Shown here in pieces: positions 5,054 to 63,293 of a DNA stretch of 64,000 bases. Within the stretch, counting starts at the first letter, position 1; every line of letters starts with the position of its first letter. The stretch comes from Bacteroidales bacterium (GTDB lineage Bacteria; Bacteroidota; Bacteroidia; Bacteroidales; WCHB1-69), in contig JBGUYY010000082.1 of assembly GCA_045222555.1 (NCBI GenBank), positions 19,094 to 83,093 of the forward strand, written 5' to 3'. Under the pieces are notes generated by a model. That model ran no database searches. It was not told the DNA's origin and was given only the letters and a program-made list of their open reading frames with translations. A program made the position numbers and the translations under genes.

Positions 5054-5947
5054 ATGAAACCCAACACCAAAAAATTCCTGCAGGAAGCTGAGAAATACCT
5101 GTTCGTCTTCATCGGTCTCGCCGTCTTCGCCTTCGGCTGGACCTTCTTCCTTATCCCCCACCAGATCACCGGCGGCGGCATCAGCGGTATCTCCGCCATC
5201 ATCTATTTCGCATGCGACAAGATCCCCGTCTCTGTTTCCGCTTTGGTGCTCAACCTCATCCTGATAGGCATCGCATGGAAAATCCTCGGGCGGCGGTTCT
5301 GCATCGACACGCTCATCTGCTCAGTGCTGCTCTCCCTGCTGCTGCAGGTCGGGCAGTCGCTGTACGACTTCCTTCTGAACTTTTACGGGCACCCCATCAT
5401 CCCCGATGACCCTTTCATGTGCGCCATGATCGGCGCCGCGCTGTCGGGACTCGGCATCGGCATCGCCCTCACCAATGGCGGCAATACTGGCGGCACCGAC
5501 ATCATCGTGCTGATGATTGCCAAATACCGGCGTGTCTCTTACGGCCGTACCAGCCTCTATCTCAACATCTTCATCGTTCTCTCATCCATCCTCACCACCC
5601 ACAATCCCGTACTGCTGGTATATAGCGCCGTGGTGCTGTTTGTCTATATCATCGTCTCCGACCTCGTCATCGATGGTTATCGGCAGACCTTCCAGTTCAT
5701 GGTCTTTTCGAAGAAAAACCACGAGATCGCAGAACGCATCAACAACGAGTTGCATCGTGGCGCCACCTTCCTGAAAGGAACGGGCAGCTACAACCACCAG
5801 GACACCGAGGTGCTGCTCATCGTCTCGCACCGCACCGACCGCGCCAACATCATCCGCATCATCAAAGAGATCGACAGCACCGCCTTCATCTCCATCTCGA
5901 AGGTGCAGAGCGTGTTTGGTAAGAATTTTGAGGAGATAAAACTTTGA
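5054..5947 (+). CDS. YitT family membrane protein (DUF161/DUF2179)
   Basis: Multi-TM N-terminus with GGGISGISAIIYF. The C-terminal soluble domain resembles DUF2179. Confidence 0.8.
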   Translation: MKPNTKKFLQEAEKYLFVFIGLAVFAFGWTFFLIPHQITGGGISGISAIIYFACDKIPVSVSALVLNLILIGIAWKILGRRFCIDTLICSVLLSLLLQVGQSLYDFLLNFYGHPIIPDDPFMCAMIGAALSGLGIGIALTNGGNTGGTDIIVLMIAKYRRVSYGRTSLYLNIFIVLSSILTTHNPVLLVYSAVVLFVYIIVSDLVIDGYRQTFQFMVFSKKNHEIAERINNELHRGATFLKGTGSYNHQDTEVLLIVSHRTDRANIIRIIKEIDSTAFISISKVQSVFGKNFEEIKL

Positions 5948-5980
5948 AAATGGAAAACTGAAAATTGAAAATTGAAAAAT
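5946..5980 (+). repeat. GA-rich heptamer array, 5 units (gaaaatg gaaaact gaaaatt gaaaatt gaaaaat)
   Basis: Starts inside stop codon TGA 5945-5947 and ends 7 nt before ATG 5988. Confidence 0.9.
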
Positions 5981-5987
5981 ATTAGAT

Positions 5988-7709
5988 ATGGATACCAACA
6001 TTATTGAAAGAGCGAAGGTCTGGTTATCGGACCAATACGATGAGGCCACCCGCAACGAGGTGCGCCGTCTGATGGAAAACGACCCTGCCGAGCTGACGGA
6101 GTCGTTCTACCGCACACTGGAGTTCGGCACGGGCGGTTTGCGCGGCATCATGGGGGTGGGTTCCAACCGCATGAACCGCTACACGGTGGGCGCTGCCACG
6201 CAGGGTCTCGCCAACTACCTGAAGAAGAGTCTTCCCAACACGGAGCTGAAGGTGGTGGTGGCGCACGACTCGCGCAACAACAGCCGCCACTTCGCCGAGG
6301 TGACCGCACAGGTCATGGCGGCCAACGGCATTGTATGCTACCTTTTTGAGGATTTGCGCCCCACGCCGGAGCTTTCGTTCGCCGTGCGGCACCTCGGCTG
6401 TCACGCCGGCGTGATGGTCACTGCCTCACACAACCCCAAAGAATACAACGGCTACAAAGTGTACTGGGGCGACGGCGGACAGATTGTGCCGCCGCACGAC
6501 AAAGGCATCATCAACGAGGTGAATGCTGTGACCTCGGTGGAGCAGATCCGCTGGACCGGTGGCGAGGAGCGCATCATATCCATCAGCCACGAGGTGGACG
6601 ATGAGTACCTGGCCCGCATCAAAGCGCTGACGCTGAATCCGGAGGCCATCGCACACCAGCACGACCTGCGTATCGTTTACACCCCGCTACACGGCACGGG
6701 CATCACCATGGTACCCAAGGCATTGGAGATGTACGGCTTCACCAACGTCACCGTGCTGGAGTCGCAGAAAACACCCGACGGCAACTTCCCGACTGTGGCC
6801 TCTCCCAACCCGGAGGAGCGCACCGCCATGGAGCTGGCCATGCGCAAGGCCGACGAGATACAGGCCGACCTGGTGCTGGCCACCGACCCCGATGCCGACC
6901 GTGTGGGCATTGCCGTGCGCGACGACCATGGACAGATGATCCTCCTGAACGGCAACATGACTGGCTCACTGTTAGTATATTACATCCTTTCACAGTGGAA
7001 AAACAGCGGCAAACTTACTGGCAAGGAGTTCACCGTAAAGACCATTGTGACCACCGAGCTCATTCGTGCGATCTCCACCTCCTTCGGCGTGGATTGTCCC
7101 GACGTGCTCACCGGCTTCAAATACATCGCCGAGCAGATTGCGAACACGCCCGACAAGCAGTTCATCGTGGGCGGTGAGGAGAGCTACGGCTATCTGGTGA
7201 GCGACTTCGTGCGCGACAAGGATGCAGTGTCGGCCTGCTGCATGATTGCCGAGATGGCGGCGGTACTGGCCGACAGTGGCAAGAGTATGTACCGCCAGCT
7301 GCAGGAGCTCTACCTCCAGTACGGTTTCTACAAAGAGTCGCTGCTCTCCATCACCCGCAAGGGACAGGCCGGTGCGGCCGAAATCCAGCAGATGATGGAC
7401 AACTTCCGCAACAATCCGCCGCGCGAAATCAACGGTTCGCCGGTGGCGAAAATGATGGACTACAAAAACCGTGTGGCCACCGACCTCAGCAGCGGCACAA
7501 CAGAGCCCATCACGCTCCCGAAGTCCGACGTGCTGCAGTTCTTCACCGAAGATGGCACCAAAATCACGGTACGGCCCTCTGGCACGGAGCCGAAGATCAA
7601 ATTTTACTTTGGTGTAAAAGAAAATCTTGCTGATTTACAATCATTTGAAAAGACATCACAACTTCTGGACGACAAAATCAGCCGAGTAAAAGAGTCATTA
7701 AAATTATAA
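5988..7709 (+). CDS. phospho-sugar mutase (phosphoglucomutase/phosphomannomutase family)
   Basis: Active-site motif TASHNPKEYNGYKVY and metal loop DPDADR. Confidence 0.85.
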   Translation: MDTNIIERAKVWLSDQYDEATRNEVRRLMENDPAELTESFYRTLEFGTGGLRGIMGVGSNRMNRYTVGAATQGLANYLKKSLPNTELKVVVAHDSRNNSRHFAEVTAQVMAANGIVCYLFEDLRPTPELSFAVRHLGCHAGVMVTASHNPKEYNGYKVYWGDGGQIVPPHDKGIINEVNAVTSVEQIRWTGGEERIISISHEVDDEYLARIKALTLNPEAIAHQHDLRIVYTPLHGTGITMVPKALEMYGFTNVTVLESQKTPDGNFPTVASPNPEERTAMELAMRKADEIQADLVLATDPDADRVGIAVRDDHGQMILLNGNMTGSLLVYYILSQWKNSGKLTGKEFTVKTIVTTELIRAISTSFGVDCPDVLTGFKYIAEQIANTPDKQFIVGGEESYGYLVSDFVRDKDAVSACCMIAEMAAVLADSGKSMYRQLQELYLQYGFYKESLLSITRKGQAGAAEIQQMMDNFRNNPPREINGSPVAKMMDYKNRVATDLSSGTTEPITLPKSDVLQFFTEDGTKITVRPSGTEPKIKFYFGVKENLADLQSFEKTSQLLDDKISRVKESLKL

Positions 7710-7758
7710 TAAATCTTAAAAATCCACTCCCTGCTACCTTTCTAACGAAAAATCATAG

Positions 7759-7766
7759 TAACTTTG
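7759..7766 (+). promoter_or_regulatory. -7 promoter box TAACTTTG
   Basis: TAnnTTTG, 34 nt upstream of ATG 7800. It lies inside the longer 7764 ORF and supports the 7800 start. Confidence 0.55.
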
Positions 7767-7799
7767 CCATCGTTAGTAGGGACTAAAACATTTACCATT

Positions 7800-8270
7800 A
7801 TGAAAGCAATGAAGCTCGCGATGCTGGTGGTTTTGGCAGTAATTTTCGCCGGATGCCAGCAAAAGATGAAAAAAGACGATGTGGAAAAAGGTGTCACCGA
7901 GATGTTCACCAGTTTCCAAAAGAATGGCATTGAAAAAACCCTTTCGGTATTTGCGGACGGCTACGACAAGATGTCGGACAACCAGAAGCAGGCGTTTCAG
8001 GATGCCTTTGCAGGAAAGGAGTTCCGCATTGCAAAGATTGAGGGCGACAAAGTGACCGCCGAGGTCTTTGTTTCCCCGTCGGAAGGCGGACAGCTCATTG
8101 TGAAGACCGTCATTTTCAAGGTCATCCAAGTGGATGGAAAAATCCGTGTCAAAGACATCATCAATGTGATCGACAATGGCGGGAAGGCCGCTTCCAGCGG
8201 TCCGGACGATGAAGTGCTTGCTGAGGAAGAGGACGATCTGGACAGTCCTTTGTCGGAAGAGCACGACTAA
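7800..8270 (+). CDS. putative lipoprotein with acidic C-terminal tail
   Basis: MKAMKLAMLVVLAVIFAGC is a signal peptide plus lipobox. The fold may be NTF2/DUF4878-like, which is a guess. Confidence 0.6.
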   Translation: MKAMKLAMLVVLAVIFAGCQQKMKKDDVEKGVTEMFTSFQKNGIEKTLSVFADGYDKMSDNQKQAFQDAFAGKEFRIAKIEGDKVTAEVFVSPSEGGQLIVKTVIFKVIQVDGKIRVKDIINVIDNGGKAASSGPDDEVLAEEEDDLDSPLSEEHD

Positions 8271-8284
8271 GCAGGGCATATATC

Positions 8285-8325
8285 AAAAAAACAGGGGCAT
8301 CCGTTGGATGCCCCTGTTTTTTTTT
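8285..8325. terminator. bidirectional intrinsic terminator
   Basis: Stem CAGGGGCATCC (8292-8302) pairs with GGATGCCCCTG (8306-8316). It is flanked by an A-run and a T-run and sits between convergent genes. Confidence 0.8.
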
Positions 8326-8339
8326 CGCAAAACAAGCGA

Positions 8340-13811: not shown

Positions 13812-14714
13812 ATGTCAGAACCACAGACAGAACATCGTGCCGGGTTTGTCAACCTGATTGGCAACCCCAACGTCGGCAAAAGCACCCTGATGAACCAGCT
13901 GGTCGGCGAGCGACTATCCATCATCACGGCAAAAGCACAGACCACCCGTCACCGCATCAAGGGCATCGTTGATGGTGACAACTACCAGATCATCTATTCC
14001 GACCTGCCCGGCATCCTCACGCCCTCCTACAAGATGCAGGAGATGATGATGAAATTCGTGACCCTTTCGCTGCAGGATGCGGATGTCATCCTCTACTTGG
14101 TGGAGTGCGGAGAAACCCGCTACGATGCCGAAATCATGGAGCATCTACAAAAAATTGAAATTCCTATTATTTTAGTAATCAATAAAATAGATAAATTCAC
14201 GACGGAGCAGGTGGCTGAAGCGGAGGCCTTTTGGAAAAACATTTTACCCAAGGCTGAGAGCGTGCTCATCTCGGCATTGCAGTCGAAAAACATCGACCAA
14301 CTGATTACCAAAATCACGGAAAAACTGCCCGTGCACGAGCCCTATTTCCCGAAAGACCAGCTCACCGACCGTCCGATGCGGTTTTTCGTTTCCGAAATCA
14401 TCCGCGAGAAAATTCTGCTCAACTACAAAAAGGAAATTCCTTACAGTGTGGAAGTTGTGGTGGATGAGTACAAAGAGACGGAGGGGTTGGTACGCATCAT
14501 GGCGACGCTGTATGTGGAGCGCGACACGCAAAAATCCATCATCATCGGCAAGGGCGGGCAGGCTATCAAGAAGCTCGGTACTGAGTCGCGGCTAGCCATC
14601 GAAGAGTTCATCGGAGAGCATGTCTTCTTGGACTTGTCGGTGAAGGTACTGAAGGACTGGCGCAACAACGAGAACATCATCAACCGGTTCGGGTATGGGA
14701 ACACGGAACGGTAA
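13812..14714 (+). CDS. era: GTPase Era
   Basis: GNPNVGKST G1 motif, NKID G4 motif, and C-terminal KH domain (GKGGQAIKKLG). Confidence 0.95.
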   Translation: MSEPQTEHRAGFVNLIGNPNVGKSTLMNQLVGERLSIITAKAQTTRHRIKGIVDGDNYQIIYSDLPGILTPSYKMQEMMMKFVTLSLQDADVILYLVECGETRYDAEIMEHLQKIEIPIILVINKIDKFTTEQVAEAEAFWKNILPKAESVLISALQSKNIDQLITKITEKLPVHEPYFPKDQLTDRPMRFFVSEIIREKILLNYKKEIPYSVEVVVDEYKETEGLVRIMATLYVERDTQKSIIIGKGGQAIKKLGTESRLAIEEFIGEHVFLDLSVKVLKDWRNNENIINRFGYGNTER

Positions 14715-14715: not shown

Positions 14716-14757
14716 GGAAATTGAAAACTGAAAACTGAAAATTGAAAATTGAAAATT
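14716..14757 (+). repeat. GA-rich heptamer array, 6 units (ggaaatt gaaaact x2 gaaaatt x3)
   Basis: Begins 2 nt after the era stop TAA at 14712-14714. Confidence 0.9.
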
Positions 14758-14782
14758 AATAATTAAAAACCAATAATAGATC

Positions 14783-15656: not shown

Positions 15657-16058
15657 ATGGAAAGCGTACGTATTGACAAATGGCTCTGGACGGTACGGCT
15701 GTTCAAGACGCGCTCCATGGCCACCGATGCCTGCAACGCCGGCAAGGTGAAGATGAACGGCACCAACGTAAAGCCCTCGAAGAACATCAAGCCTGACGAG
15801 GTGTTCGAGGTGCATATCGGACAGCTGGTGAAGACCGTGAAAGTGCTGGACGCCCCGAAGAGCCGGGTGGGAGCGCCGCTGGTGCCGCAGTACTGCGAAG
15901 ACCTCACCCCACCAGAGGAGTACGAGCGCGTGCGGATGCTGAACATGCGCTTTGAGCGGCGCGACCGCGGTGAGGGCCGTCCCACCAAACGCGACCGCCG
16001 ACAGATCGACTTCATCAAGAACTTGTACGGGGAAGAGGAGTGGGGAAATGAAAATTGA
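15657..16058 (+). CDS. hslR: S4-domain RNA-binding heat-shock protein 15-like
   Basis: RIDKWLWTVRLFKTRSMATDACNAGKVKMNG S4 motif and a basic C-terminus. Confidence 0.8.
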   Translation: MESVRIDKWLWTVRLFKTRSMATDACNAGKVKMNGTNVKPSKNIKPDEVFEVHIGQLVKTVKVLDAPKSRVGAPLVPQYCEDLTPPEEYERVRMLNMRFERRDRGEGRPTKRDRRQIDFIKNLYGEEEWGNEN

Positions 16059-16091
16059 AAATTGAAAATTGAAAACTGAAAACTGAGAGGG
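16044..16091 (+). repeat. GA-rich heptamer array, about 6.5 units, overlapping the hslR 3' end and supplying its stop
   Basis: ggaaat gaaaatt x3 gaaaact x2 gagaggg. Stop TGA 16056-16058 is inside the second unit. Confidence 0.9.
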
Positions 16092-16101: not shown

Positions 16102-17271
16102 TTACTTCCTCTTTTTCTTTAGCATTCGCGGATACTTGTCGTACCAATTATAGAAACAAAGTCCATACGTCCATTCAATGTAATCGGCAACGAAAAGGTG
16201 TGCTTTGATACTGACGCCAAGGATATGATTCCGTTTCGGTCCGAGTAGAAACTGCAATCCCACCCTTTCGTAAAAAGGCTGGTAGAAGCTGTAGTAGCGG
16301 CCGAGGTAAAAACCTGCAGAGGTGTGCAGCACCAGCCGCGAGAAGGTGACATCGAAAGCCGCAAAGACAGCGGGCAGGAAGCATTTCCCCTCTTTGCGAT
16401 CCTCTTCCGACAAATAGGTCAGCACCTCACGGTTATAGAAGAGGTCGAAGCCACCGCCGTAACGGAACTTCGGATGAGGCTGACGCAAATAACCGACCTC
16501 CAACGTGGTGGCAAAACAGTACGGCGGCCGGTCGGCTTTGGAAAGGGTGAATTCCGCCCGCGACTGCTTAGTACCCGGCGCCACAAAGAAATAGAGCCTG
16601 TTGATCGGGCGGAATTGCGTAATGGTGTCGATGGTGTGAATGGTTTCCAGCTGCTCATACAGTCGGCAACGCACCCCTGCCTTCACCGTCACCCCATTAA
16701 TGCCATAGTTGGGCAGCGAAAGCACCCCATTGGAGGAGTGTGAAAAGTCGCCAGCCAACAACAAATCCGTATGCTTCGACAAACGAGCGGTGATGCCCAT
16801 CGAGATATCCAAATGAACACTGGCATGCCCCCCCACAAAAACATTCTCAGGATTGGTATAGAAATTATACTTTTTGGTCCAGAAGTTGACGCCAGCGCCG
16901 AGCTTGTAGAAGAAAGTAAACTTGGGCTTCCGCACAAAATAACCATTGAGGAAACCGAAAACGGCGAACTTCTCGCCGATGCTCTCACGGTTGAAATGGC
17001 TGTACCTCACAGCCACGCCATAACTCGGATAATGGAACCATTGCTCCCACTCCTTGCTACCGTCCGTTTGCCGTCCAACGCACACATCCACCCCACACAA
17101 ATCGGTCTGCCACAGCCACGAAACCTCCTTGAAGTTGGGCAATACGCGTCCATAGCGAATGGAGGGTTCCACATACCACAGATTTTTTGTCTGCCCACAC
17201 AAAAAAGAAGTTTGCAGCAAAAGGACAAGCCCTATCAGCAGCCGCTGCCAAAGTGTCGCACCCCATCTCAT
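16102..17271 (-). CDS. acyloxyacyl hydrolase / lipid A deacylase (PagL)-like outer-membrane protein
   Basis: Signal peptide, alternating beta-strand pattern, and H..S.NG motif (HSSNGVLSLPNYGINGV) as in PagL-family proteins. ATG 17271 overlaps the lpxH stop (TGATG). Confidence 0.6.
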   Translation of the reverse strand: MRWGATLWQRLLIGLVLLLQTSFLCGQTKNLWYVEPSIRYGRVLPNFKEVSWLWQTDLCGVDVCVGRQTDGSKEWEQWFHYPSYGVAVRYSHFNRESIGEKFAVFGFLNGYFVRKPKFTFFYKLGAGVNFWTKKYNFYTNPENVFVGGHASVHLDISMGITARLSKHTDLLLAGDFSHSSNGVLSLPNYGINGVTVKAGVRCRLYEQLETIHTIDTITQFRPINRLYFFVAPGTKQSRAEFTLSKADRPPYCFATTLEVGYLRQPHPKFRYGGGFDLFYNREVLTYLSEEDRKEGKCFLPAVFAAFDVTFSRLVLHTSAGFYLGRYYSFYQPFYERVGLQFLLGPKRNHILGVSIKAHLFVADYIEWTYGLCFYNWYDKYPRMLKKKRK

Positions 17272-18095
17272 CACTTCACCTCCTCAGTGTCCGCCGACTT
17301 TTCCGGCAGAACGTCAGTGGGAAAGGCGAGCAGCTGCACCTCGCCATCCACCCACTGCAGGTAGGTGAAGTGCGTAAGCCAATCACCCGTATTATAATAG
17401 GTAATATTTTCTGTTACAGACACTTCCATAGGAAGATGACGGTGACCGTACACCACCACTTCGATAGGATGGCTAGTAACGCATTGACGGATGTGTTCCA
17501 AGGTGGCCTGCTCCTGCTTCCGGGCGCGCTCCTCATGCTTGGCTGACGTACCGCTGCTCTGCGCCCGGCTGCCACGCGAGCAGGCCCGTGCGATGGCGAA
17601 GGCCCAGCGAGGCGGCAACGCACCATATAGCGCAATGTGGGGACGGAAAGCGAACACTCTCTTGATGAACAAATACCCCTTGTCCTTCGGATCCAACCCA
17701 TCGCCATGCCCCACCAGACAAAGTTTTCCGTTAATCTCAAAAAGCTGTTCTTCCCGAAAAATCTTCATTCCCAACTCCTTCTCAAAATAATCCTTCACCC
17801 ACATGTCGTGATTGCCCGTAAAGAAATAAATCTCCGTTCCTTTCTTTCTCATTTCTAATAATTTAGAAAAGAAGAGATAATAACCTTTCGGCACCACATC
17901 TTTATATTCGAACCAAAAATCGAAAATATCGCCCAACAAAAACAGATGGTCGGCCTGCGGCGCAATCTTTTCGAGCCATTGCACCACACGCACTTCCCGT
18001 TCGCGGCTCGCTTCGGCATTAGGAGCACCAAAATGGAAGTCAGAGGCGAAGAAGGCGTTTCCGCTGATGACGATAGGAGAATTTGTGGAGGACAC
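17271..18095 (-). CDS. lpxH: UDP-2,3-diacylglucosamine diphosphatase
   Basis: Metallophosphoesterase motifs SDFHFG, GDIFDFW, GNHD and GHRH. The start is uncertain. GTG 18095 is preferred because ATG 18167 would sit 2 nt from the ligA ATG and would include the ligA promoter box. Confidence 0.75.
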   Translation of the reverse strand: MSSTNSPIVISGNAFFASDFHFGAPNAEASREREVRVVQWLEKIAPQADHLFLLGDIFDFWFEYKDVVPKGYYLFFSKLLEMRKKGTEIYFFTGNHDMWVKDYFEKELGMKIFREEQLFEINGKLCLVGHGDGLDPKDKGYLFIKRVFAFRPHIALYGALPPRWAFAIARACSRGSRAQSSGTSAKHEERARKQEQATLEHIRQCVTSHPIEVVVYGHRHLPMEVSVTENITYYNTGDWLTHFTYLQWVDGEVQLLAFPTDVLPEKSADTEEVK

Positions 18096-25016: not shown

Positions 25017-25041
25017 ACTTTTCAATTCTCAGTTTTCAGTG
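25017..25041 (-). repeat. GA-rich heptamer array, 3 units, minus orientation (gaaaact gagaatt gaaaagt)
   Basis: Reverse complement of acttttcaattctcagttttcagtg. Lies downstream of the minus-strand OMP gene and 34-nt box copy 2. Confidence 0.7.
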
Positions 25042-30730: not shown

Positions 30731-30848
30731 TAAATTGAAAATTGAGAATTGAGAATTGAAAACTGAAAACTGAGAATTGAAAATTGGAAGTTGAGAGTTA
30801 GAAGTTAGAAGTTACAGGTTAAAAGTTCGAAACTCAAAGATTACAGCT
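30731..30848 (+). repeat. GA-rich heptamer array, about 17 units, degenerating 5' to 3'
   Basis: taaatt gaaaatt gagaatt x2 gaaaact x2 gagaatt gaaaatt ggaagtt gagagtt agaagtt x2 acaggtt aaaagtt cgaaact caaagat tacagct. Starts 1 nt after stop TAG 30728-30730. Confidence 0.9.
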
Positions 30849-30850: not shown

Positions 30851-30889
30851 AAAAAAAACAGCCCGGCAATTTCTTGTCGGGCTGTTTTG
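30851..30889. terminator. bidirectional intrinsic terminator
   Basis: A8 run, stem CAGCCCGGCAA / TTGTCGGGCTG (30859-30884) with loop TTTC, then a T-run. Lies between convergent genes. Confidence 0.8.
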
Positions 30890-40251: not shown

Positions 40252-40277
40252 TTCTCACCTCTCAATTTTCAATTCCC
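40252..40277 (-). repeat. GA-rich heptamer array, about 3.7 units, minus orientation
   Basis: The reverse complement reads gggaatt gaaaatt gagaggt gagaa. It fills the tsaD-holA spacer. Confidence 0.65.
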
Positions 40278-51714: not shown

Positions 51715-51733
51715 AGAATGCAAAATGAAGCGG

Positions 51734-51742: not shown

Positions 51743-51827
51743 GAAAAATTTGAAAATTGAGAATTGGGAGATTTGAAGATTTGAAAGATTTGAGGATTTG
51801 AAGATTTGAGGATTGGGGGGATGGGGA
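51743..51827 (+). repeat. GA-rich array, mostly 8-nt period (gaagattt gaaagattt gaggattt ...), plus orientation between two minus-strand genes
   Basis: gaaaaatt tgaaaatt gagaatt gggagattt gaagattt gaaagattt gaggattt gaagattt gaggatt gggggg... It abuts the GT4 stop at 51828-51830 and the promoter box at 51734-51741. Confidence 0.85.
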
Positions 51828-52991
51828 TTAGAGGGCGATGATTTGGGCGAGTTGCTCGTTGACGCGTTCCCAGTTGTAGTTGGAGCGCACGAACTGGTAG
51901 CCGTTTTCAGAAATCCTGCCGTACATCTCAGGGTTTTCGAGCAAAGCCTTCACAGCCTCGGCGAACCCTGTGGTGGTGTTGCAGATGAGGATTTCCTTGC
52001 CATTCTCAATACCCTTGAGGGGCTTGCCTGCGAGGGTGGAGGTGACGCAGGGAAGTTTCATCGACATGGCCTCTAACAGCTTGTTTTGCAGACCAGTACC
52101 AAGGTGCATGGGGGCAATGAACACCCTTGACTGCGCATAGTAGCTGGCCATGCTGTCCACCCAGCCGGTCACGATGACTCGGCGGCTCTGGAGGGCCCTG
52201 ACGGCGGGAGAGGGCGAAGCACCGCAGAGGGCAACGGTAAGGTCAGGATAATCCTGCCAAAGCAGCGGCATCACCTCACGCACCAGATACTGAGCGGCCT
52301 CCACATTGGGAGCATAGCTCATATTTCCTGCAAAAATCAGATCATAATTTTTCTCACAATCCTGATAGCGATAGTAGTCGAAATCCACGCCATTGGCCAC
52401 CACATGAATCAGGTTGCTCTGCTCGTGCGGAATAAGGTCGCGGTCCACCTCCGTGATGATCACCTTTTCATCAAACAGCGAGAAGACCTGCTCCTCATAG
52501 CGGCAGAGGCGGCGGTATTCGGCATTGAAAAACCAGCGTTTCCAGAAGGGAGCTTTTTCAGCGCGACGTTGCATTCCTTTCGATAGAACATCTTGATAAT
52601 CAATCGTTTTACGAATATTGAAATGCGTCACATATTCCGCCACCCGTATCAGTTGGCAGAAGATGCGGTCGGGCTGCACGCGGGCTACCAGTTCGTTGAC
52701 AAGTTGCTGCGCCTTGCGACTGTAGAAATAGCCGCACTGGAGGGGAAGTCCCGTGAAAAGAGCGCGGGCGGTATTCCACAGCCGGCTTGCCCAAGTCAGT
52801 TTCACCACATGCAGTTCTTTACAGAACGGCCGAATCTTCGCCATCGACTCCTCTGTGGGAAACTTTTCACACAAAGTCACCACATAGAGTTCGTGATAGC
52901 GCGACAAAACCCGCAGCTGATGGTATGCGCGGAGCTTATCACCCTTCTCGAGAGGGTACGGGAAACGGGGTAAAACGACTAAAACTTTCAT
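51828..52991 (-). CDS. family 4 (GT-B, GT1-Pfam) glycosyltransferase
   Basis: C-terminal E..G....LLEAMSMKLPCVTS motif and ~390-aa GT-B size. Confidence 0.8.
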   Translation of the reverse strand: MKVLVVLPRFPYPLEKGDKLRAYHQLRVLSRYHELYVVTLCEKFPTEESMAKIRPFCKELHVVKLTWASRLWNTARALFTGLPLQCGYFYSRKAQQLVNELVARVQPDRIFCQLIRVAEYVTHFNIRKTIDYQDVLSKGMQRRAEKAPFWKRWFFNAEYRRLCRYEEQVFSLFDEKVIITEVDRDLIPHEQSNLIHVVANGVDFDYYRYQDCEKNYDLIFAGNMSYAPNVEAAQYLVREVMPLLWQDYPDLTVALCGASPSPAVRALQSRRVIVTGWVDSMASYYAQSRVFIAPMHLGTGLQNKLLEAMSMKLPCVTSTLAGKPLKGIENGKEILICNTTTGFAEAVKALLENPEMYGRISENGYQFVRSNYNWERVNEQLAQIIAL

Positions 52992-53103: not shown

Positions 53104-53208
53104 CAGCGATGATTTTTTAATTGGATATATTGTAATTTATTGTGTATATTTTTTGAAAAATCATTTTATAAATAATTGATAATCAATAATAAAAATAAAA
53201 ATAAATCA

Positions 53209-56200
53209 ATGAGAAAGACACTTACAGCCCTCCTCATCATTTTGGCAACCTGCATCAGCAGCGCATTCGGACAGTGCACCGTCAGTATTTCAGGCCCCAC
53301 TGGAATTGTTTGCACCGGTGACCAAGTCACACTGACCGCATCAATAAATGGTGCTGATCCAGGCAGCTGCGCCTCATCCGTCAACATCAGCAACACGACC
53401 ACCACGGTCACCTGTGGGCAGTCGATTTGCTTCTATGATTCAGGCGGTCCGAGCGGAAACTATAGCACCAGTGAGAGTTACATCCACACTTTCACCTCCA
53501 GCAACGGCTCACCCGTCACCATCACCTTCCTGTCGGCCACTGGCGAGACCTGCTGCGACTACATCTACGTCTACGATGGAGCAGGAACCGGCGGCACTCA
53601 GCTGCATTACGGTTTGCTGAGCACCGTGAACGGCAACGTGACCTACACCTCCACGGGCAACAGTCTTACTGTGAAATTCACCTCCGACGGAAGTGTGTGT
53701 TACGACGGATGGCAGGCCATTATTTCCTGCGACGCCTGCACCAACTACACCTACAACTGGAGTAACGGCATGACCGGTCAGACCATCACGGTATCCCCCA
53801 CTTCCCAAACCACCTATACGGTCACCGCCAACTCTGAGGGCTGCTGCAACTCCACTGCCTCTGTCACCATCAACCCCACCAACTGCGTGAACAACTGCAA
53901 CGGTTTTGAGACCACCGCCGACCGCGCGGAATGGACTTTCGTGAACGGTTCGCAGACCAACCAGTGGGTGATGAACACCGCCGTGAACAACGGTGGACAA
54001 TACGCAATGTACGTCACCAATGCTCCCACCTCCACCACTCCCGTCAACTCCTACACCAACACCAGCACCTACGTTTGGGCCTACAAAGACATCGAATTCC
54101 CGGAATGCGACGACAACTTCACCCTGAGTTTCGACTGGATGGCCTATGGCGAGAGCTGCTGCGACTATATGTACGTCTACATCGGCGCACCGGCCACAGT
54201 AACAGCTGGTTCCGCCACCGCCCCGACAGGCGCGACCCAATTCAACAACCCCACCACCTCCTCTGTGAAATTCAACCTTGCCAGCACCTGGCAGCATTTT
54301 GAGACTCAGCTCAGCAGTGCAACCTATTCGGGCCAGATCATGCGCCTATACTTCATGTGGCACAACGACGGTTCGGTACAGACCCAGCCGCCGGCGGCCG
54401 TTGACAACGTCTGCATCCAGTCGTGCGAGCCTTGTAACCAGCCCGTGGTGAATGTCACCCCTGAGTCGGCAGTACTCTGCCAAGGTGAGAGCGTCACGTT
54501 CAACGCCACCGTTACGGGCGGCAGCGGTCACGGCTACACCTACGAGTGGACTCCGGCCACCGGCTTGAGTTCCACCAACACGGCCACCACCACCGCCACG
54601 CCGACCGCTACCACCACCTACTCGCTGCGCGTTACCGACAGCGAGGATTGTGCCAAGACGGTGCGCATCCCCGTGGAGATCTCAGGCACCACCATCGAGA
54701 TTACACAGTCGCCGGCCGTCTATTGCCGCGGCACCGACCCCGTGACCCTTAACGCTGTGCTGAATGTGAGCGGTAGCTGCAGCAACTACACCTATGCCTG
54801 GAGCAACGGTCCTACCGGCACCGTGTCAACAGACGTTCCCCAGCAGAACACCACCTATACCGTCACCGCCACACCAGTCGGCGGCGACTGCTGCACCCTG
54901 ACCGCCACCCACACCGTTGAAGTGGGGGACTGCAACCAGGACTGCAACGATTTTGAGACCCCGACAGGTCGTGCCGAATGGACGCTTGTGAACGGTTCGC
55001 AGACCAACCAATGGGTGACGGGCACTGGCACCAACAACGGCGGCCAGTACGCCCTGTACGTGTCGAACTCCCCCACAGCGGCAACCCCGCCCAACTCCTA
55101 TACCAACACTGCTTCCACCGTATGGGCTTACAAGGAGATTGAGTTCCCAGAATGTGATGAAGACTTTGTGCTGAGTTTCGACTGGAAATGCGGCGGTGAA
55201 AGCTCCTGCGACTACATGTCCGTATTCATCGGAGAAGAGGCAACCGTAACAGCGGGCAGCACCACTCAGCCTACTGGTTCCACCCGTATCACGAATCCCG
55301 ACGCCACCTCTTCCTCTTATACCAACTACTTCAACACTTACGGCAACTATAACGACCAATGGCATCACACCGAGGTCATCCTTGACCACGAAACCTATTC
55401 CGGATTGTATATGACGCTTTATTTCATGTGGCATAATGACGGTTCTGTACAGAACTACAGTCCGGCAGCTGTGGACAACGTATGTATCCAAGCTTGTATT
55501 CCGTGTGATCAGCCTGTAGTGACCGTCACTCCGGCCAGTGTCATCCTGTGCCAGGGCGAAAGTGTTGACTTCACGGCATCCGCCACGGGCGGCAGCGGCG
55601 GCGGCTACACCTTCACATGGTCGCCCGCTGGTTCTCTCAACACTACCAACGGCCCCACTGTGACCGCCACCCCTGAGGAGACCACTGTGTATAGAGTACG
55701 AGTGACAGACGGAGAGGGCTGCGCCAAGACCGTGCGTGTGACCGCTGAAGTGTCGGGTACTCGTCTTAACGTGCAGGCCACGCCCGCCGGCTTCTGCGCC
55801 GGCAGCACCGAGCCTGTCACCATCACCGCCAACTTGCAGGTGGAAGGTTCCTGCAGTGGCTACACCTACGCTTGGAACACGGGAGCTGTCGGCACAACCA
55901 TCAACGACAACCCCACCATCTCCACCACCTACACCGTGACCGCAACGCCCACCGACCCCGCCTGCTGCGAACTTATTGCCAGTGTCACCGTGGCTGTGAT
56001 GGACTGCGCCGCTGAAGGCTGTCCGAGCGTCGCTCCGGCAGAGCTGGGAACCAACAATGTAGATATCAACATTGACTGTTCATCGCAGCCAGAGGTCACC
56101 CTCAGCGCCAACGTCATGGCCACTGCCGTGGAGGCCGACGACTACTTTGTATTCTCCATCCCCTACAACCCGCCTTACGGCTACACGGATGGCACACGAA

Positions 56201-57945
56201 TCTTTGCCAACGCTACCGACGACACATGGAGTAGTGTGGTAAACCTGCCCTTCACCTTCTGCTATTACGGCAACACCTACACTCAGATTGTGGCAGGCGC
56301 CAACTCAGTGGCTACCTTCAACACCAGCGTGGCCGGCAACAGCTGCGCTTGGTCGTACGACGAATCTATTCCGGATGCCAACCTCTTCCCCAACACCATC
56401 TTCGCCTGCTACCGTGACATCTACCCCTCCACCAGCGATTATATAGCATCCACGGGCGACGGCGGCATTTTTGAGGGTGTTTTAGGAGAATATCCTTGCA
56501 GAAGCTACGTGTTAAGTTTCAACAACATCAAGCTCTTCTCCTGCACCGAAATCAGAACCTTCACCTCCATGATTGTATTGTATGAAGGTACTAATGTTAT
56601 TGATATCTATTTACGTGATGCACCGACCTGCACCTCTTGGAACGATGGTAACGGTGTGATCGGTCTCCAGAATGCTGACTGCTCGCGCGGTATCACACCT
56701 CCCGGCCGCAACACTGGTCCGTGGACGGCACACGAAGAGGCATGGCGTTTCATGCCGACCGGCCAGCCCAGCTATACCGTCACCTGGTACCTGGGCACCG
56801 ACACGTCGGCCAACGGTACCATACTCGGATATGGCGACCTGCTGACCGTGACTCCCACAGAGAGCAACGACTACACGGCTCGCTTGCAGTACACGGCCTG
56901 CAACGGCGACTACTTTGACATTGTCAACCGTTGCCATGTGACCGTCAATAACGCCACCCCGATTCTGACAGTCGTTGCTTCAAAAGACACCCTCTGTCCG
57001 AACGAGGAGGTGACCATTGAAGCCTTCACCGAGACACCGATTTCATACGTATGGAACACTGGTGACACGGTTTCACAATTCACCCTCATTCCGGAAGAAG
57101 TGGTCTCCACTTACACGGTAACGGTGACCTACGAGAATGGTTGTACCAGAAGCGACAGCATCACCGTATATGCCGTAGCCTCCATTGATCCGCCCACCTT
57201 CACATTGGATCCGAACGAGGATTGTGCAGGAAGCCGCTTTGTCATCACAGCCAATGATTACGCCTACTATTACTGGAGCAATGGCGCCACCAGCCAGTCC
57301 ATCACCGTATATCCCCAGGCCACTACCACCTACTCGCTGACCGTATCCGACGAGGTGGGTTGTCAGTCCAGCGGACAGACAACGGTCACCGTGCACCCCT
57401 ATCCTACTGCAGCCTTCGCGCCCGAACAGTTCCTCACCTACCTTGAGGATGGTGTCGCCGATGTGCGCTTCATTGACTTCTCGGAAGGTGCCGTCAACTG
57501 GCTGTACGACTTCGGCGACCAATGGTCCAACTCCAACACCTCCATTGAACAAAATCCTATCCACACCTATACCCACTCTGGCATTTATACTGTAACACAG
57601 TGGGTGACTTCCGACTTCGGCTGTTCAGACTCTGTAACGCATCAGGTTTCGATACAAAAACCCTTCTACTTCTACGTTCCCAACGCCTTCACACCCGATG
57701 GCGACGGCATCAACGAAGTATGGCTGCCGCAAGGCGAGGGTGTGGACGAAAGCAACTATGTGTGTATGGTATTCGACCGCAACGGACGAATGATTTTCAA
57801 GACCAACTCGCTGACACAAGGCTGGGATGGTAGAGACCAACGCGGCAAAGCAGTACCCTGTGCCAGCTATGTCTATGTCATCCAGACCAGCACCATGGAT
57901 GCCACTCCAAAAGAATACACCGGCACCGTCACTGTTGTACGTTAA
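53209..57945 (+). CDS. giant Cys-rich secreted protein with T9SS type-B (gliding-motility CHU_C) C-terminal sorting domain
   Basis: Signal peptide MRKTLTALLIILATCISSAFGQ. A CUB-like module (ICFYDSGGPSGNYS...CCDYIYVYDG). Tandem modules of about 350 aa. A PKD-like domain (YDFGD...HTYTHSGIYTV). C-terminal VPNAFTPDGDGINE...WDGRD...YVYVI. Confidence 0.8.
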   Translation: MRKTLTALLIILATCISSAFGQCTVSISGPTGIVCTGDQVTLTASINGADPGSCASSVNISNTTTTVTCGQSICFYDSGGPSGNYSTSESYIHTFTSSNGSPVTITFLSATGETCCDYIYVYDGAGTGGTQLHYGLLSTVNGNVTYTSTGNSLTVKFTSDGSVCYDGWQAIISCDACTNYTYNWSNGMTGQTITVSPTSQTTYTVTANSEGCCNSTASVTINPTNCVNNCNGFETTADRAEWTFVNGSQTNQWVMNTAVNNGGQYAMYVTNAPTSTTPVNSYTNTSTYVWAYKDIEFPECDDNFTLSFDWMAYGESCCDYMYVYIGAPATVTAGSATAPTGATQFNNPTTSSVKFNLASTWQHFETQLSSATYSGQIMRLYFMWHNDGSVQTQPPAAVDNVCIQSCEPCNQPVVNVTPESAVLCQGESVTFNATVTGGSGHGYTYEWTPATGLSSTNTATTTATPTATTTYSLRVTDSEDCAKTVRIPVEISGTTIEITQSPAVYCRGTDPVTLNAVLNVSGSCSNYTYAWSNGPTGTVSTDVPQQNTTYTVTATPVGGDCCTLTATHTVEVGDCNQDCNDFETPTGRAEWTLVNGSQTNQWVTGTGTNNGGQYALYVSNSPTAATPPNSYTNTASTVWAYKEIEFPECDEDFVLSFDWKCGGESSCDYMSVFIGEEATVTAGSTTQPTGSTRITNPDATSSSYTNYFNTYGNYNDQWHHTEVILDHETYSGLYMTLYFMWHNDGSVQNYSPAAVDNVCIQACIPCDQPVVTVTPASVILCQGESVDFTASATGGSGGGYTFTWSPAGSLNTTNGPTVTATPEETTVYRVRVTDGEGCAKTVRVTAEVSGTRLNVQATPAGFCAGSTEPVTITANLQVEGSCSGYTYAWNTGAVGTTINDNPTISTTYTVTATPTDPACCELIASVTVAVMDCAAEGCPSVAPAELGTNNVDINIDCSSQPEVTLSANVMATAVEADDYFVFSIPYNPPYGYTDGTRIFANATDDTWSSVVNLPFTFCYYGNTYTQIVAGANSVATFNTSVAGNSCAWSYDESIPDANLFPNTIFACYRDIYPSTSDYIASTGDGGIFEGVLGEYPCRSYVLSFNNIKLFSCTEIRTFTSMIVLYEGTNVIDIYLRDAPTCTSWNDGNGVIGLQNADCSRGITPPGRNTGPWTAHEEAWRFMPTGQPSYTVTWYLGTDTSANGTILGYGDLLTVTPTESNDYTARLQYTACNGDYFDIVNRCHVTVNNATPILTVVASKDTLCPNEEVTIEAFTETPISYVWNTGDTVSQFTLIPEEVVSTYTVTVTYENGCTRSDSITVYAVASIDPPTFTLDPNEDCAGSRFVITANDYAYYYWSNGATSQSITVYPQATTTYSLTVSDEVGCQSSGQTTVTVHPYPTAAFAPEQFLTYLEDGVADVRFIDFSEGAVNWLYDFGDQWSNSNTSIEQNPIHTYTHSGIYTVTQWVTSDFGCSDSVTHQVSIQKPFYFYVPNAFTPDGDGINEVWLPQGEGVDESNYVCMVFDRNGRMIFKTNSLTQGWDGRDQRGKAVPCASYVYVIQTSTMDATPKEYTGTVTVVR
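53737..56005 (+). repeat. intragenic tandem duplication: module 1 53737-54777, module 2 54778-55851, partial module 3 55852 to about 56005
   Basis: Each module starts C(T/S)(N/G)YTY(N/A)W(S/N).G. Modules 1 and 2 also contain C(N)(G/D)FET...RAEWT.VNGSQTNQWV, FPECD, CDYM.V(Y/F)IG, LYFMWHNDGSVQ, AAVDNVCIQ.C.PC.QPVV and LCQGESV.F.A..TGGSG.GYT(Y/F).W.P. Confidence 0.85.
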
Positions 57946-57969: not shown

Positions 57970-59757
57970 ATGAAAAACATCCGCAACTTCTGTATCATCG
58001 CACACATTGACCACGGGAAAAGCACATTAGCAGACCGAATGCTCCAGTTCACCGGCACGGTGAACGACCGCGACTTCCAAGACCAAGTTTTGGACGACAT
58101 GGCGCTGGAGCGCGAGCGTGGCATCACCATCAAGAGCCACGCCATCCAAATGGATTACCAATACAAAGGGGAGCACTATGTGCTGAACCTGATTGACACC
58201 CCCGGTCACGTGGACTTCTCCTACGAAGTGTCGCGTTCCATCGCAGCGTGCGAAGGCGCCCTGCTGTTGGTGGATGCCACACAGGGTGTTCAGGCCCAGA
58301 CGATTTCCAACCTTTATTTAGCCATCGACAATAATTTGGAAATCATACCTGTGCTCAACAAGATGGATATGCCCGCCGCCATGCCGGCAGAGGTGAAAGA
58401 CCAGATTATTGACCTGATTGGGTGTGACGAGTCGGAAATTATCGAGACCAGCGGTAAGACCGGACTGGGTGTGGAGGAACTGTTGGCCGCCATCATCGAG
58501 CGCATCCCCGCCCCAAAAGGCGACCCCGACGCTCCCCTGCAGGCCCTCATCTTCGACTCCGTATTCAACTCATACAGAGGCATCATCTCCTACTTCCGAA
58601 TCTTCAACGGCACCATGCACACGGGCGACAAGCTCAAGTTCTTGTCCACCGGCAAGGAGTACGATGCCGATGAGATTGGCGTGCTACGCATGACGCAGGA
58701 ACCTCGCCAGGTGATGAAGGCCGGCGATGTGGGCTACATCATTTCCGGCATCAAGACCTCGAAGGAGGTGCGTGTGGGCGACACCGTCACGCAGGTGGAA
58801 CGTCCCTGTACGGAAGCGGTGGCCGGATTCCAGGAGGTGAAACCCATGCTCTTCGCCGGTGTTTACCCCACCGATGCCGACCAGTATGAGGAGCTGCGCG
58901 CCTCGTTAGAGAAACTCCAGCTCAACGACGCCTCCCTCACCTTCGTGCCCGAATCGTCGGCTGCCCTCGGCTTCGGTTTCCGCTGCGGCTTCCTCGGACT
59001 GCTGCACATGGAGATTGTGCAGGAACGCCTCGACCGCGAGTTCAACATGGACGTGATTGCCACCGTACCCAACGTCTCCTACAACCTTTACACCACCAAA
59101 GGCGAACTCATCGAAGTTCACAATCCTTCTGGCATGCCTGCCCCCACCATGATCGACCACGTGGAGGAACCCTATATCCGGGCACAGATCATCAGCAAGG
59201 ATGACTTCATCGGCCCCATCATCAAGCTATGTCTTGACAAGCGTGGCACGCTGCTCAACCAAGTCTATATCGCCTCCAACCGTGTGGAGCTGACCTTCGA
59301 CCTGCCGTTAGGTGAAATCGTTTTCGATTTTTACGACAAATTGAAGAGCATCTCGAAAGGGTACGCCTCTTTCGACTATCATATTTCCAGCTACAAGCCC
59401 GCACATCTGGTGAAACTGGATATTCTGCTGAACGGCGATTCGGTGGATGCCCTCTCCTCGCTGACCCATGTGGACAATGCTTATCCTTTTGGGCGAAAGA
59501 TTTGCGAAAAGCTGAAGGAACTCATCCCGAGACAGCAGTTCGACATCGCCATCCAGGCGGCCATCGGCTCCAAGATCATCGCAAGAGAAACGGTGAAGCA
59601 GGTGCGCAAGGATGTGACTGCCAAGTGTTACGGCGGCGATATCACCCGTAAGCGCAAACTGTTGGAAAAACAGAAACAGGGCAAGAAGCGCATGCGCCAA
59701 ATCGGCAACGTGGAAGTGCCGCAGTCGGCCTTCCTCGCCGTGCTGAAATTGGACTAA
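57970..59757 (+). CDS. lepA: translation elongation factor 4
   Basis: [26 protein letters not shown] and NKMD motifs, plus the conserved LepA C-terminal domain. Confidence 0.95.
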
Positions 59758-59792
59758 GGGAATTGAAAACTGAGATTTGAAAATTGAAAAGT
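59758..59792 (+). repeat. GA-rich heptamer array, 5 units (gggaatt gaaaact gagattt gaaaatt gaaaagt)
   Basis: Starts immediately after the lepA stop TAA 59755-59757 and runs into the terminator stem. Confidence 0.9.
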
Positions 59793-59822
59793 AGAGATGC
59801 AATGAATTGCATCTCTTTTTTT
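59793..59822. terminator. intrinsic terminator after lepA
   Basis: Stem AGAGATGCAA (59793-59802) pairs with TTGCATCTCT (59807-59816), loop TGAA, then T6. Confidence 0.8.
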
Positions 59823-62647: not shown

Positions 62648-62668
62648 ACGAAGATTCAATTCAGTCAG

Positions 62669-62676
62669 CAAAGATA
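62669..62676 (-). promoter_or_regulatory. -7 promoter box TATCTTTG (minus strand)
   Basis: 22 nt upstream of ATG 62647. Confidence 0.6.
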
Positions 62677-62760
62677 CGACTAATTTTTCATTTCAAAAAA
62701 TTAAGCCTAAAATTTAATTCACAATACACAGATAACAACCCATATTCAGCGAGTTTTTTG

Positions 62761-62768
62761 TAATTTTG
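62761..62768 (+). promoter_or_regulatory. -7 promoter box TAATTTTG
   Basis: 68 nt upstream of the sufE ATG at 62836. Confidence 0.5.
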
Positions 62769-62835
62769 CATTCCCGAGCCAAATGATAAAACCTTACCTT
62801 AAAATATTTATTATCAATAATTTATATAAACAATA

Positions 62836-63249
62836 ATGAGCAGTATTGCAGAAGCCGAAAACGAAATCATCGAAGAGTTCGAGTTGTTCGATGACTGGAT
62901 GGACAAATACAATTATATTATAGAACTGGGGAAAAGTCTGCCCCTCATCGATCCGCAATACAAAGACGACGCGCACCTGATTCCCGGCTGCCAGTCGCAG
63001 GTGTGGCTCCATGCGGAGATGAGTGATGGAAAACTGATGTTCCGCGCCGACAGCGATGCCATCATCACGAAGGGCATCATCAACCTGCTCATCCGGGTGC
63101 TGTCGGGACACACTCCACAGGAGATTCTGGACTGCGATCTCGCCTATATCGACAAAATCGGCATCAAAGAGCACCTCTCCCCCACCCGCTCCAACGGTCT
63201 TGTGTCGATGATTCAGCAGATCAGAGGGTATGCGAAGGGGAATTTGTAG
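62836..63249 (+). CDS. sufE: SufE-like cysteine desulfuration protein
   Basis: IPGCQSQVWL active-site Cys motif and typical ~137-aa length. Confidence 0.85.
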   Translation: MSSIAEAENEIIEEFELFDDWMDKYNYIIELGKSLPLIDPQYKDDAHLIPGCQSQVWLHAEMSDGKLMFRADSDAIITKGIINLLIRVLSGHTPQEILDCDLAYIDKIGIKEHLSPTRSNGLVSMIQQIRGYAKGNL

Positions 63250-63293
63250 ATTGGAGAGATTTGAGAGATTTGAAAGATTTAAGAGATTTGAGA
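63249..63293 (+). repeat. GA-rich array with 9-nt period, 5 units (gattggaga gatttgaga gatttgaaa gatttaaga gatttgaga)
   Basis: Starts on the last base of the sufE stop TAG 63247-63249 and ends 7 nt before ATG 63301. It occupies essentially the whole spacer. Confidence 0.9.

Follow-up and report, generated by a model that had tools for sequence, protein, structure and literature searches.

What are the short purine-rich repeats found at the ends of otherwise unrelated genes in this Bacteroidales genome, how did they come to stand there, and do they serve a purpose? In the 64-kb window (the whole 64,000-nucleotide stretch of contig JBGUYY010000082.1 analysed here), units of one related family (GAAAAYT, GARGATTT and GAGAGATTT) are arrayed in tandem, head to tail, at nine intergenic sites, nearly all of them against a stop codon. 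We report here that the arrays are real and are resized by slippage, that they belong to the described heptanucleotide class of intergenic repeats, and that on balance they are probably a lineage-specific family of simple sequence repeats (SSRs) acting as a near-neutral filler generated by slippage.

Detection of nine arrays built from one unit family

Tandem Repeats Finder (TRF) recovered seven of the nine arrays, with periods of 7, 8 or 9 and four to nine copies. Period 7 was assigned to 5944-5978, 14718-14769, 16049-16086, 30732-30831 and 59761-59790, period 8 to 51745-51814 and period 9 to 63248-63295. The two short sites at 25017-25041 and 40252-40277 are under the TRF threshold, and the program returned no further intergenic tandem array of comparable score in the window. 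A pattern of three successive GAAAAYT units with at most three mismatches gave 24 matches at seven sites in the window, compared to 0.03 expected from dinucleotide-preserving shuffles. The three units of 25017-25041 were matched with two to three mismatches, and 40252-40277, which reads GGGAATT GAAAATT GAGAGGT on the minus strand, gave no match to the three-unit pattern at up to three mismatches; these two sites are weak members of the family. The array density in the window is 0.9 per 10 kb, and a tenth array, at the ABC-F|enolase junction, lies just outside it.

These results agree with the earlier note, a reading of the letters alone, which had described arrays of one related 7-9-nt unit at nine intergenic sites and had taken them to be spacer-less, non-coding and distinct from clustered regularly interspaced short palindromic repeats (CRISPR). 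A CRISPR array was indeed rejected, as the 7-9-nt units are contiguous and no cas genes are found among the annotated neighbours. Inspection of the array flanks, at the window sites and at the ten syntenic loci L001-L010 described below, revealed no conserved flanking sequence, which argues against a larger mobile element.

The arrays adjoin stop codons

A greedy open reading frame (ORF) caller gave wrong calls for several window genes. The map was re-curated by homology, and gene ends were set by hand from Pfam and NCBIfam scans and from the gene calls of related contigs. On this map, a stop codon lies inside, or no more than 3 nt from, eight of the nine arrays, whereas uniform placement of each array within its own spacer would bring 3.6-4.2 of the nine that close (P ~0.0004-0.0025). 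The adjacency to stop codons that had been proposed from the letters, with 25017-25041 as its sole exception, is therefore upheld.

Four sense arrays end 5-25 nt upstream of a start codon. The five GAAAAYT units at 5946-5980 (plus strand) fill the spacer between a yitT-like gene (5054-5947) and a co-directional phosphoglucomutase-family gene (5988-7709), the TGA of the first unit being the stop codon of the yitT-like gene. Six to seven units at 14716-14769 (plus strand) stand between the co-directional genes era (stop 14712-14714) and folD (start 14783). The weak array at 25017-25041 (minus strand) lies between two co-directional, minus-strand hypothetical genes, 55 nt past the stop at 25097 and 19 nt ahead of the start at 24997. 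At 63249-63293 (plus strand), five units of the 9-mer AGATTTGAG fill the spacer from the sufE stop to the start of the co-directional ABC-F gene, and the sufE stop TAG overlaps the first unit.

Three other arrays face terminators or convergent genes. The five to six units at 16044-16091 (plus strand) contain the hsp15 stop (16056-16058) and are convergent with a PagL-like gene (16102-17274, minus strand). The longest array, about 17 units at 30731-30848 (plus strand), separates a polysaccharide-biosynthesis gene (28832-30730) from a convergent DUF4328 gene; its first base directly follows the TAG stop and its units degenerate toward the 3' end. The five units at 59758-59792 (plus strand) extend from the lepA stop (TAA, 59755-59757) to a terminator and are convergent with a PD-(D/E)XK protein gene.

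The last two arrays are antisense to co-directional neighbours. The weak array at 40252-40277 (minus strand, two to three units) makes up the entire 26-nt spacer from the tsaD stop (40251) to the holA start (40278) and is antisense to both genes. The array at 51743-51827 (plus strand, about ten units) changes from 7-mers to 8-mers (GAAGATTT) and is flush with the stop of a minus-strand glycosyltransferase gene (51828-52991); its other minus-strand neighbour encodes a glycogen synthase/phosphorylase fusion. The purine-rich strand is thus sense to the flanking genes in seven arrays, 25017-25041 included, and antisense in two. The neighbours are mostly housekeeping genes unrelated to one another (era, folD, hsp15, lepA, sufE, tsaD, holA).

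Arrays occupy 6 of about 24 co-directional spacers, three of five convergent ones and none of the five to six divergent ones, small numbers that rest on the hand-corrected map. Six of the nine end within 25 nt upstream of a start codon. All are confined to DNA that runs from a stop codon to the next functional element, be it a start codon, a terminator or a promoter.

The arrays at 30731 and 59758 had been said to lead into hairpins, and both do. The hairpin at 59793-59816 (10 bp) scores as an intrinsic terminator on both strands (z ~ -3 on each), and the lepA array, read antisense, is its T-rich tail on the minus strand. Between the 30731 array and the convergent gene (30908-32005), a hairpin at 30859-30884 has a GC stem preceded by an A8 run and followed by a T-run; with -25.9 kcal/mol it is terminator-like on both strands, and it was missed by a simple terminator scan. 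These hairpins raise the question of whether the arrays are terminator accessories whose A-rich or U-rich arms turn adjacent hairpins into bidirectional terminators. The T-rich tail at lepA is what such a role would provide, as are the inverted array pairs that flank GC hairpins in other phyla among the matches listed. Yet a hairpin adjoins only two of the nine window arrays, the one at 30859 has its own A and T runs, and most arrays lie inside probable operons, directly ahead of start codons, so we regard this role as very unlikely. As a separate observation, a comparison of the window with L001-L010 shows that the lepA terminator keeps its stem while its loop is found inverted from lineage to lineage (GCAATGAATTGC versus GCAATTCATTGC).

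As RNA, the arrays are unstructured, with minimum free energies of 0 to -13 kcal/mol and z-scores of -0.6 to +1.3; the folding energy of 30731-30848 is the same as that of its shuffles (z = -0.01). A search of the arrays against Rfam at gathering thresholds gave no match. A structured non-coding RNA or a repetitive extragenic palindrome (REP)-type element was rejected on these two grounds. From their position, the arrays would be transcribed and, as A-rich RNA without structure, would make intercistronic spacers and 3' untranslated regions longer.

The same A-rich units invite a DNA-level explanation, in which the arrays act as curved DNA, as insulators or as binding arrays for a nucleoid-associated protein. 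Units with A-tracts and occurrence in both orientations would suit an element that works as a duplex. However, a 7-bp phasing should turn successive A-tracts by ~240 degrees, so that curvature would cancel every 21 bp; the unit length moreover varies (7, 8 or 9), and divergent promoter spacers are avoided. Any such element is highly improbable, and the suggestion of curved DNA made from the letters is unlikely to be correct, given the cancellation predicted from the helical repeat.

Array lengths change by whole units in independent assemblies

Cross-lineage loci were found by exact look-up of the LepA protein; look-ups of FolD and Era gave contigs of the same strain or species only, and exact look-up of the 632-aa ORF upstream of the longest array returned no record. 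At least 21 contigs, from independent ENA, NCBI and JGI assemblies, encode a LepA protein identical to that of the window. About six further lineages are represented by ten of the loci, L001-L010, each 21.8 kb long and syntenic with 48-64 kb of the window. At the nucleotide level, lepA in these loci shares 92% identity with the window gene and 94.4-100% among the loci themselves, every difference being synonymous.

All ten loci carry arrays at the three shared junctions, resized by whole units. The sufE|ABC-F spacer measures 27, 36, 45, 63 (window) or 81 nt, in exact 9-nt steps, and SufE has 137 or 139 residues according to whether it ends at the TAG stop or, where the TAG is lost, at an array TGA two codons later. 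The array 3' of lepA has five units in most lineages and about eight in L002. The spacer between the glycosyltransferase and glycogen synthase genes varies from 75 to 107 nt and is made of 7-mers or of 8/9-mers in these ten assemblies. Both here and at the ABC-F|enolase junction, GAAAAYT 7-mers or 8/9-mers (GAAGATTT, AAGATTTGA) occupy the same position in lineages whose lepA genes are 98-99% identical. This switch of unit type at one site confirms that the 7-, 8- and 9-nt units are one evolving family, and the earlier grouping of 7-mers with 8/9-mers is justified by their replacing each other at the same orthologous site. Changes are also seen within the species: in L131 (~97% nucleotide identity to the window), two to three GAAAGTT units stand between era and folD compared to six in the window, and the hsp15 array has two units compared to five. 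The earlier claim that the arrays are prone to slippage is borne out by these whole-unit differences between lineages.

Could the arrays be an artefact of assembly? They are found at the same sites in more than ten independent assemblies (ENA, NCBI, JGI, Logan), which excludes this explanation, and a Logan contig (SRR25030101; L130/L132) matches the window at 100% identity along 11.3 kb, two arrays included. In favour of an artefact it can only be said that this contig ends in the 16044 array and that repeats do disturb assembly; the probability of an artefact is vanishingly small. The break itself lies within the hsp15 array, at about window position 16078, an instance of repeats disrupting short-read assembly. 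We conclude that the arrays are real and are resized by slippage.

Such changes in copy number recall contingency (phase-variation) tracts, which tune adjacent genes by the gain and loss of units, a role also put forward in the earlier note. Unit number is indeed polymorphic between and within species-level lineages. However, contigs with identical lepA genes (L001/L004; L003/L008/L010) have identical array lengths, which means that the arrays are not hypermutable, and the arrays are short. Since they stand beside housekeeping genes and outside ORFs and promoter spacers, a contingency role is highly unlikely.

An array-free relative and the birth of arrays at gene ends

A metagenome scan with FolD yielded locus L135, which is syntenic with the window over 16 kb at ~75% nucleotide identity. 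It has no arrays at any orthologous junction; its spacers are short and its stops ordinary. At the yitT-like|phosphoglucomutase junction, L135 has a 15-nt spacer and the upstream protein ends EEIK-TAA, one codon earlier than in the window, where it ends EEIKL-TGA and the TGA belongs to the first unit of the 5946 array. At the end of hsp15, L135 reads EED-TGA whereas the window has TGG at that position and reads through to an array TGA (EEEWGNEN*); array-free relatives end in EED* or EDE*. Between era and folD, the 42-nt spacer of L135 holds a single ACTGAAAAT, in place of the window's six to seven units.

Given that L135 lacks arrays and has ordinary stops, the comparison shows that the arrays arose at gene ends in the window's genus, after its split from the array-free relative. 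It also shows that the TGAs built into the arrays can take over termination, as in the yitT-like gene, in hsp15 and in sufE alleles. With an outgroup devoid of arrays, about seven lineages in which they are resized and TGAs that have been captured, this case displays array birth together with the remodelling of C-termini and operon spacers.

Arrays in related genomes

Relatives were further sampled through FolD rather than through the repeats, which gave 48 arrays. Per 10 kb, the number of period-7/8 arrays is about one in rumen-type relatives (63-65% FolD identity) and 0.3 in marine relatives that are more distant; L135 and L136 have none in this sample. Density thus ranges from 0 to ~1 per 10 kb in FolD-selected relatives, compared to 3.8 in loci chosen for carrying an array. 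The units of the rumen-type relatives differ from those of the window (TGAAACT, TGAGACT, TGAACCT, TAGCAGT, TAAACCTC and more). About half of the 48 arrays are flush with a stop codon, the stop often being in register as the first unit, and antisense arrays flush with stops occur here too (L142/L145/L154).

The region after ung was compared among nine lineages; Ung is 90-95% identical among the six lineages in which it was compared. Seven of the nine lineages carry an array directly after ung, each with an entirely different unit, and two have none; in one array-less lineage, ung overlaps the following gene by ATGA. This indicates that the position after the stop is a persistent hot spot, that the unit turns over and that the array is dispensable. 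Some 60-100 nt past the ung stop, after the variable arrays, a hairpin-like motif CCTTGA..GCCCC-N4-GGGGC, a candidate terminator or small repeated element, is conserved in several rumen-type relatives (L140, L141, L146, L156).

Since arrays so often begin at a stop, we considered fail-safe termination, in which stops in all frames after a gene would trap ribosomes that have read through or shifted frame. TGAAAAY repeated at period 7 places stops in all three forward frames and none in reverse, and any 7- or 8-nt unit with TGA brings a stop into every frame of the purine-rich strand within three units. A sense-strand TGA every 7-8 nt, array TGAs that serve where the original stop was lost, and the eight of nine window arrays at stops would all be in keeping with such a device. 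In addition, a stop is present on one or both strands of 40 of the 48 units in relatives, compared to 55% of flank-sampled k-mers and 73% of unit shuffles. This excess is weak against the composition-matched shuffles, and selection for stop-containing units was rejected as a candidate. Moreover, 9-mer arrays offer a stop in one frame only; the antisense arrays (40252, 51743, L142/L145/L154) lack sense-strand stops, yet are flush with stops; and one or two stops would suffice, not 5-17 units. The Xanthomonas heptamer GGGAATC (PMC4692102) is placed alike, although its unit is read as having no stop triplet. Fail-safe termination as the purpose of the arrays is therefore improbable.

Alternatively, the arrays could act as RNA, either as landing pads for the ribosome or its protein S1 ahead of the downstream cistron, or as multivalent arrays for a lineage-specific RNA-binding protein that governs mRNA stability or translational coupling. 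That six of nine arrays end within 25 nt of a start codon, in the Shine-Dalgarno-poor Bacteroidota, speaks for such a role, as do the lack of structure, the modest sense-strand bias and the persistence of arrays at junctions across lineages. One unit family per genome would also fit a co-evolving reader protein, and roles of this kind were proposed for the TAACTGA repeats (PMC4679880) and for the cyanobacterial short tandemly repeated repetitive (STRR) sequences. On the other hand, two arrays are antisense, and three look onto a terminator or a convergent gene, with no cistron downstream. At a given site, copy number varies freely, as does even the unit type; arrays are missing in the outgroup and in some ung lineages with no obvious compensation, and the neighbouring genes share no functional theme. 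We hold an RNA-level role to be possible, though not likely.

The shape of the units was also recorded. The 47 period-7/8 units of loci L133-L212, whose lineages are not independent, tend to consist of one purine block and one pyrimidine block, with a mean of 2.89 purine/pyrimidine transitions per unit compared to 3.72 in shuffles and 3.38 in flank-sampled k-mers (P ~0.01). The published GGGAATC and GGGGAYT units share this shape.

Arrays in other phyla and in viruses

We searched 185,579 species genomes for three successive TGAAAAY units, with crude ORF calls that add noise. Arrays were found in more than ten phyla, among them Acidobacteriota, Planctomycetota, many Bacteroidales, Cyanobacteriota, Parabeggiatoa and Patescibacteria; among the matches listed, to which the genome counts below also refer, some lie in genomes of 60-74% GC. 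In co-directional gene pairs, sense outnumbered antisense by 50:23, or 55:29 by a second rule, and the ratio in viral contigs was 30:19. Sense arrays stood within 3 nt of a stop in 15 of 50 and 6 of 18 cases, compared to 6.0 and 0.6 expected, and this held for the sense orientation only. Depletion from divergent spacers is not clear in this sample, and adjacency to start codons is unreliable in it, as the TTG inside the unit was scored as a start by the ORF caller.

Does this wide occurrence reflect the spread of one particular unit? In viral contigs, GAAAAYT gave 56 array-bearing stretches, compared to 31 and 32 for two composition-matched permuted units. As the permuted units also form arrays, GAAAAYT is not special and its cross-phylum occurrence needs no horizontal transfer; the idea of a special, horizontally spread unit was dropped after this control.

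Two IMG/VR contigs carry several arrays in a single orientation within 8-14 kb, L254 with five, all on the minus strand, and L232 with four, all on the plus strand; the presence of several arrays per viral contig implies that array-rich genomes include phages or prophages. In Thermoanaerobaculia and other phyla, inverted pairs of GAAAAYT arrays surround an often GC-rich spacer of 19-90 nt. Among 151 arrays, from the matches listed, nine pairs are of convergent type (including L015, L037, L038, L075, L088 and L106) and four of divergent type (including L018, L021 and L058). Such pairs might fold into very long hairpins or act as extended terminators in both directions.

A probable near-neutral filler produced by slippage

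The explanation that we favour, with the measured confidence of an on-balance judgement, is that the arrays are a lineage-specific SSR family of the heptanucleotide class and a near-neutral slippage filler. Whole-unit gain and loss, with a unit that drifts between 7, 8 and 9 nt at one site, is the behaviour that replication slippage would be expected to produce, and ectopic copying between arrays may possibly add to it. A 7-nt duplication would be tolerated only in unconstrained DNA, chiefly just past a stop codon. Arrays would re-expand while other unconstrained spacer DNA is deleted, and would so come to lie flush with constrained sequence on both sides. Stops on the sense strand would let them abut or overrun gene ends at the cost of a few residues. 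Tolerance and re-expansion could together explain why arrays hug stops, fill their spacers and show a modest sense bias, and the arrays themselves would then have little or no sequence-specific function.

Several observations weigh against this explanation. Nearly all arrays of one genome share one unit family, and the family differs between related genomes, for which simple independent slippage has no account. The same junctions keep their arrays over a synonymous lepA divergence of ~8%, and the recurrence of arrays after ung with full unit turnover could reflect selection for having an array. Antisense arrays that lack sense-strand stops are still flush with stops (51743; L142/L145/L154), so that built-in stops can be only part of the explanation. 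Nor does any proven cause account for the sense bias (55:29 in genomes, 30:19 in viral contigs).

The stop-anchored placement, the single unit family per genome and the recurrence at the same junctions with unit turnover lead us to raise, as a doubtful alternative, an active process. Repeats could be generated by a mechanism coupled to gene 3' ends, such as template switching in the stop context that copies existing units. Alternatively, a lineage-specific single-stranded nucleic acid-binding protein could co-evolve with the heptamer, the arrays being multivalent platforms on operon mRNAs. If true, either process would unite the STRR sequences, the Xanthomonas GGGAATC repeats, the TAACTGA repeats and the Bacteroidota arrays under one explanation. 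In practice, the arrays fragment short-read contigs and displace the stops and starts called when metagenome-assembled genomes are annotated.

Other features of the window

The glycogen synthase/alpha-glucan phosphorylase fusion beside the 51743 array is 1,410 residues long (47482-51723), and positions 53176-57945 encode a PKD-repeat protein of ~1,580 residues with a C-terminal CHU_C domain of the type IX secretion system (T9SS) type, in keeping with an origin in Bacteroidota. In prfB, positions 2040-2085 contain a classic programmed +1 frameshift site with a Shine-Dalgarno-like element upstream (AGGAGGTGTCTTTGAC; CTTTGA at 2069); Shine-Dalgarno sequences are otherwise rarely used in Bacteroidota. 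The dnaA gene is located at 3343-4788, and a search of the window for a DnaA-box cluster gave 16 matches with at most one mismatch compared to 12.8 expected, hence no enrichment. No array is present in the divergent spacer 5' of sufE (62672-62835; ~14700-14830 in L001-L010), whose sequence is well conserved between lineages. A -7 promoter motif of the Bacteroidota type (TAATTTTG, which fits TAnnTTTG) lies within it, as does, in relatives, an AT-rich stretch of period 11.

Comparison with known repeat classes

The earlier note knew of no described class with such a structure and placement. This statement does not stand, as heptamer classes have been published (PMC4692102, PMC4679880; STRR sequences). 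Every feature of the class that could be examined was found in the window arrays. They belong to the described intergenic repeats of the heptanucleotide class and are not a new kind of element; our analysis establishes no function for them. Families of heptamer repeats have been known for decades, likewise without an established function.

The closest parallel is provided by Rehm et al. 2015 (PMC4692102), who described the intergenic heptamers GGGAATC in Xanthomonas and GGGGA(C/T)T in Nostoc. These lie between aligned ORFs, are under-represented between divergent ORFs, adjoin or overlap stop codons on the coding strand, are mostly transcribed and accompany genes of all functional classes. Related species carry them between corresponding gene pairs, with extensive variation in length and sequence; no function was found, and the authors also judged a contingency role unlikely. 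Shared with our arrays are the head-to-tail heptamers at many loci, the co-oriented ORFs, the rarity in divergent spacers, the inverted pairs and a unit made of a purine run followed by Y-T. The Rehm units are however G-rich, form G-quadruplexes and prefer four units, whereas the window units are A-rich, form no G-quadruplex, contain TGA, drift to 8 and 9 nt and come from uncultured Bacteroidota. Membership of the G-quadruplex-forming subclass (at least four G-tracts of at least three G) was rejected, as the G residues of the window units stand singly and only two G-runs occur, at the 3' end of 51743-51827. The window hence adds an A-rich heptamer family without G-quadruplexes, from uncultured Bacteroidota, to the known class. 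As such arrays follow the placement rules of the G-rich repeats, placement would be a property of the class and not of the G-quadruplex.

MacGregor 2015 (PMC4679880) reported arrays of the heptamer TAACTGA between genes of Beggiatoaceae, Cyanobacteria and some Bacteroidetes. These differ by 7-nt indels between strains and have forward-strand stops in every frame, which limit their overlap with the ends of coding sequences; translational regulation and the horizontal spread of a regulatory network were proposed. TAACTGA is one base apart from the window unit AAACTGA (that is, GAAAACT), but in the type genome it stands mostly just upstream of start codons whereas the window arrays are anchored at stops. 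The exact TAACTGA unit is absent from the window, where the units in this register are AAACTGA, AAATTGA and GAATTGA, and assignment to the strict TAACTGA family was rejected for that reason. Among the matches listed, a Planctomycetaceae array (L017) mixes GAGAACT, GAAAACT and GATAACT (that is, TAACTGA), and a Parabeggiatoa contig carries GAAAACT arrays.

The STRR sequences of cyanobacteria, reportedly first described by Mazel et al. in 1990, are likewise 7-bp tandem units, intergenic and often intercistronic, and lineage-specific, and a role in transcript stability or translational coupling was suggested for them. They differ in having other units (e.g. CCCCAGT), some of them hairpin-capable, and in belonging to heterocystous cyanobacteria. 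The long SSRs of Mrazek, Guo and Shah 2007, as summarised in PMC4679880, have units of 5-11 nt, heptanucleotides being the most abundant; they are sporadic by genome, and polymerase slippage was proposed as their cause. As with our arrays, the propensity to carry them varies among related genomes; they are however a statistical category rather than a defined element and, in that summary, are silent on placement at stop codons.

Two further kinds of repeat are more distant. The phase-variable SSRs of Haemophilus, Neisseria and Moraxella shift in copy number by slipped-strand mispairing as well, but are long and hypermutable tracts that belong to surface or restriction-modification genes, where they lie in the ORF or in the promoter spacer. 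The tandem repeats of archaeal Borg elements (PMC9879509) resemble the window arrays in being fast-evolving and genome-specific and in their A-bias on the coding strand; most of their intergenic units have a length that is no multiple of three, and slippage and A-rich seeds were proposed. Unlike the window arrays, they have units of ~18-36 nt that are unique to each locus, and many lie inside ORFs.

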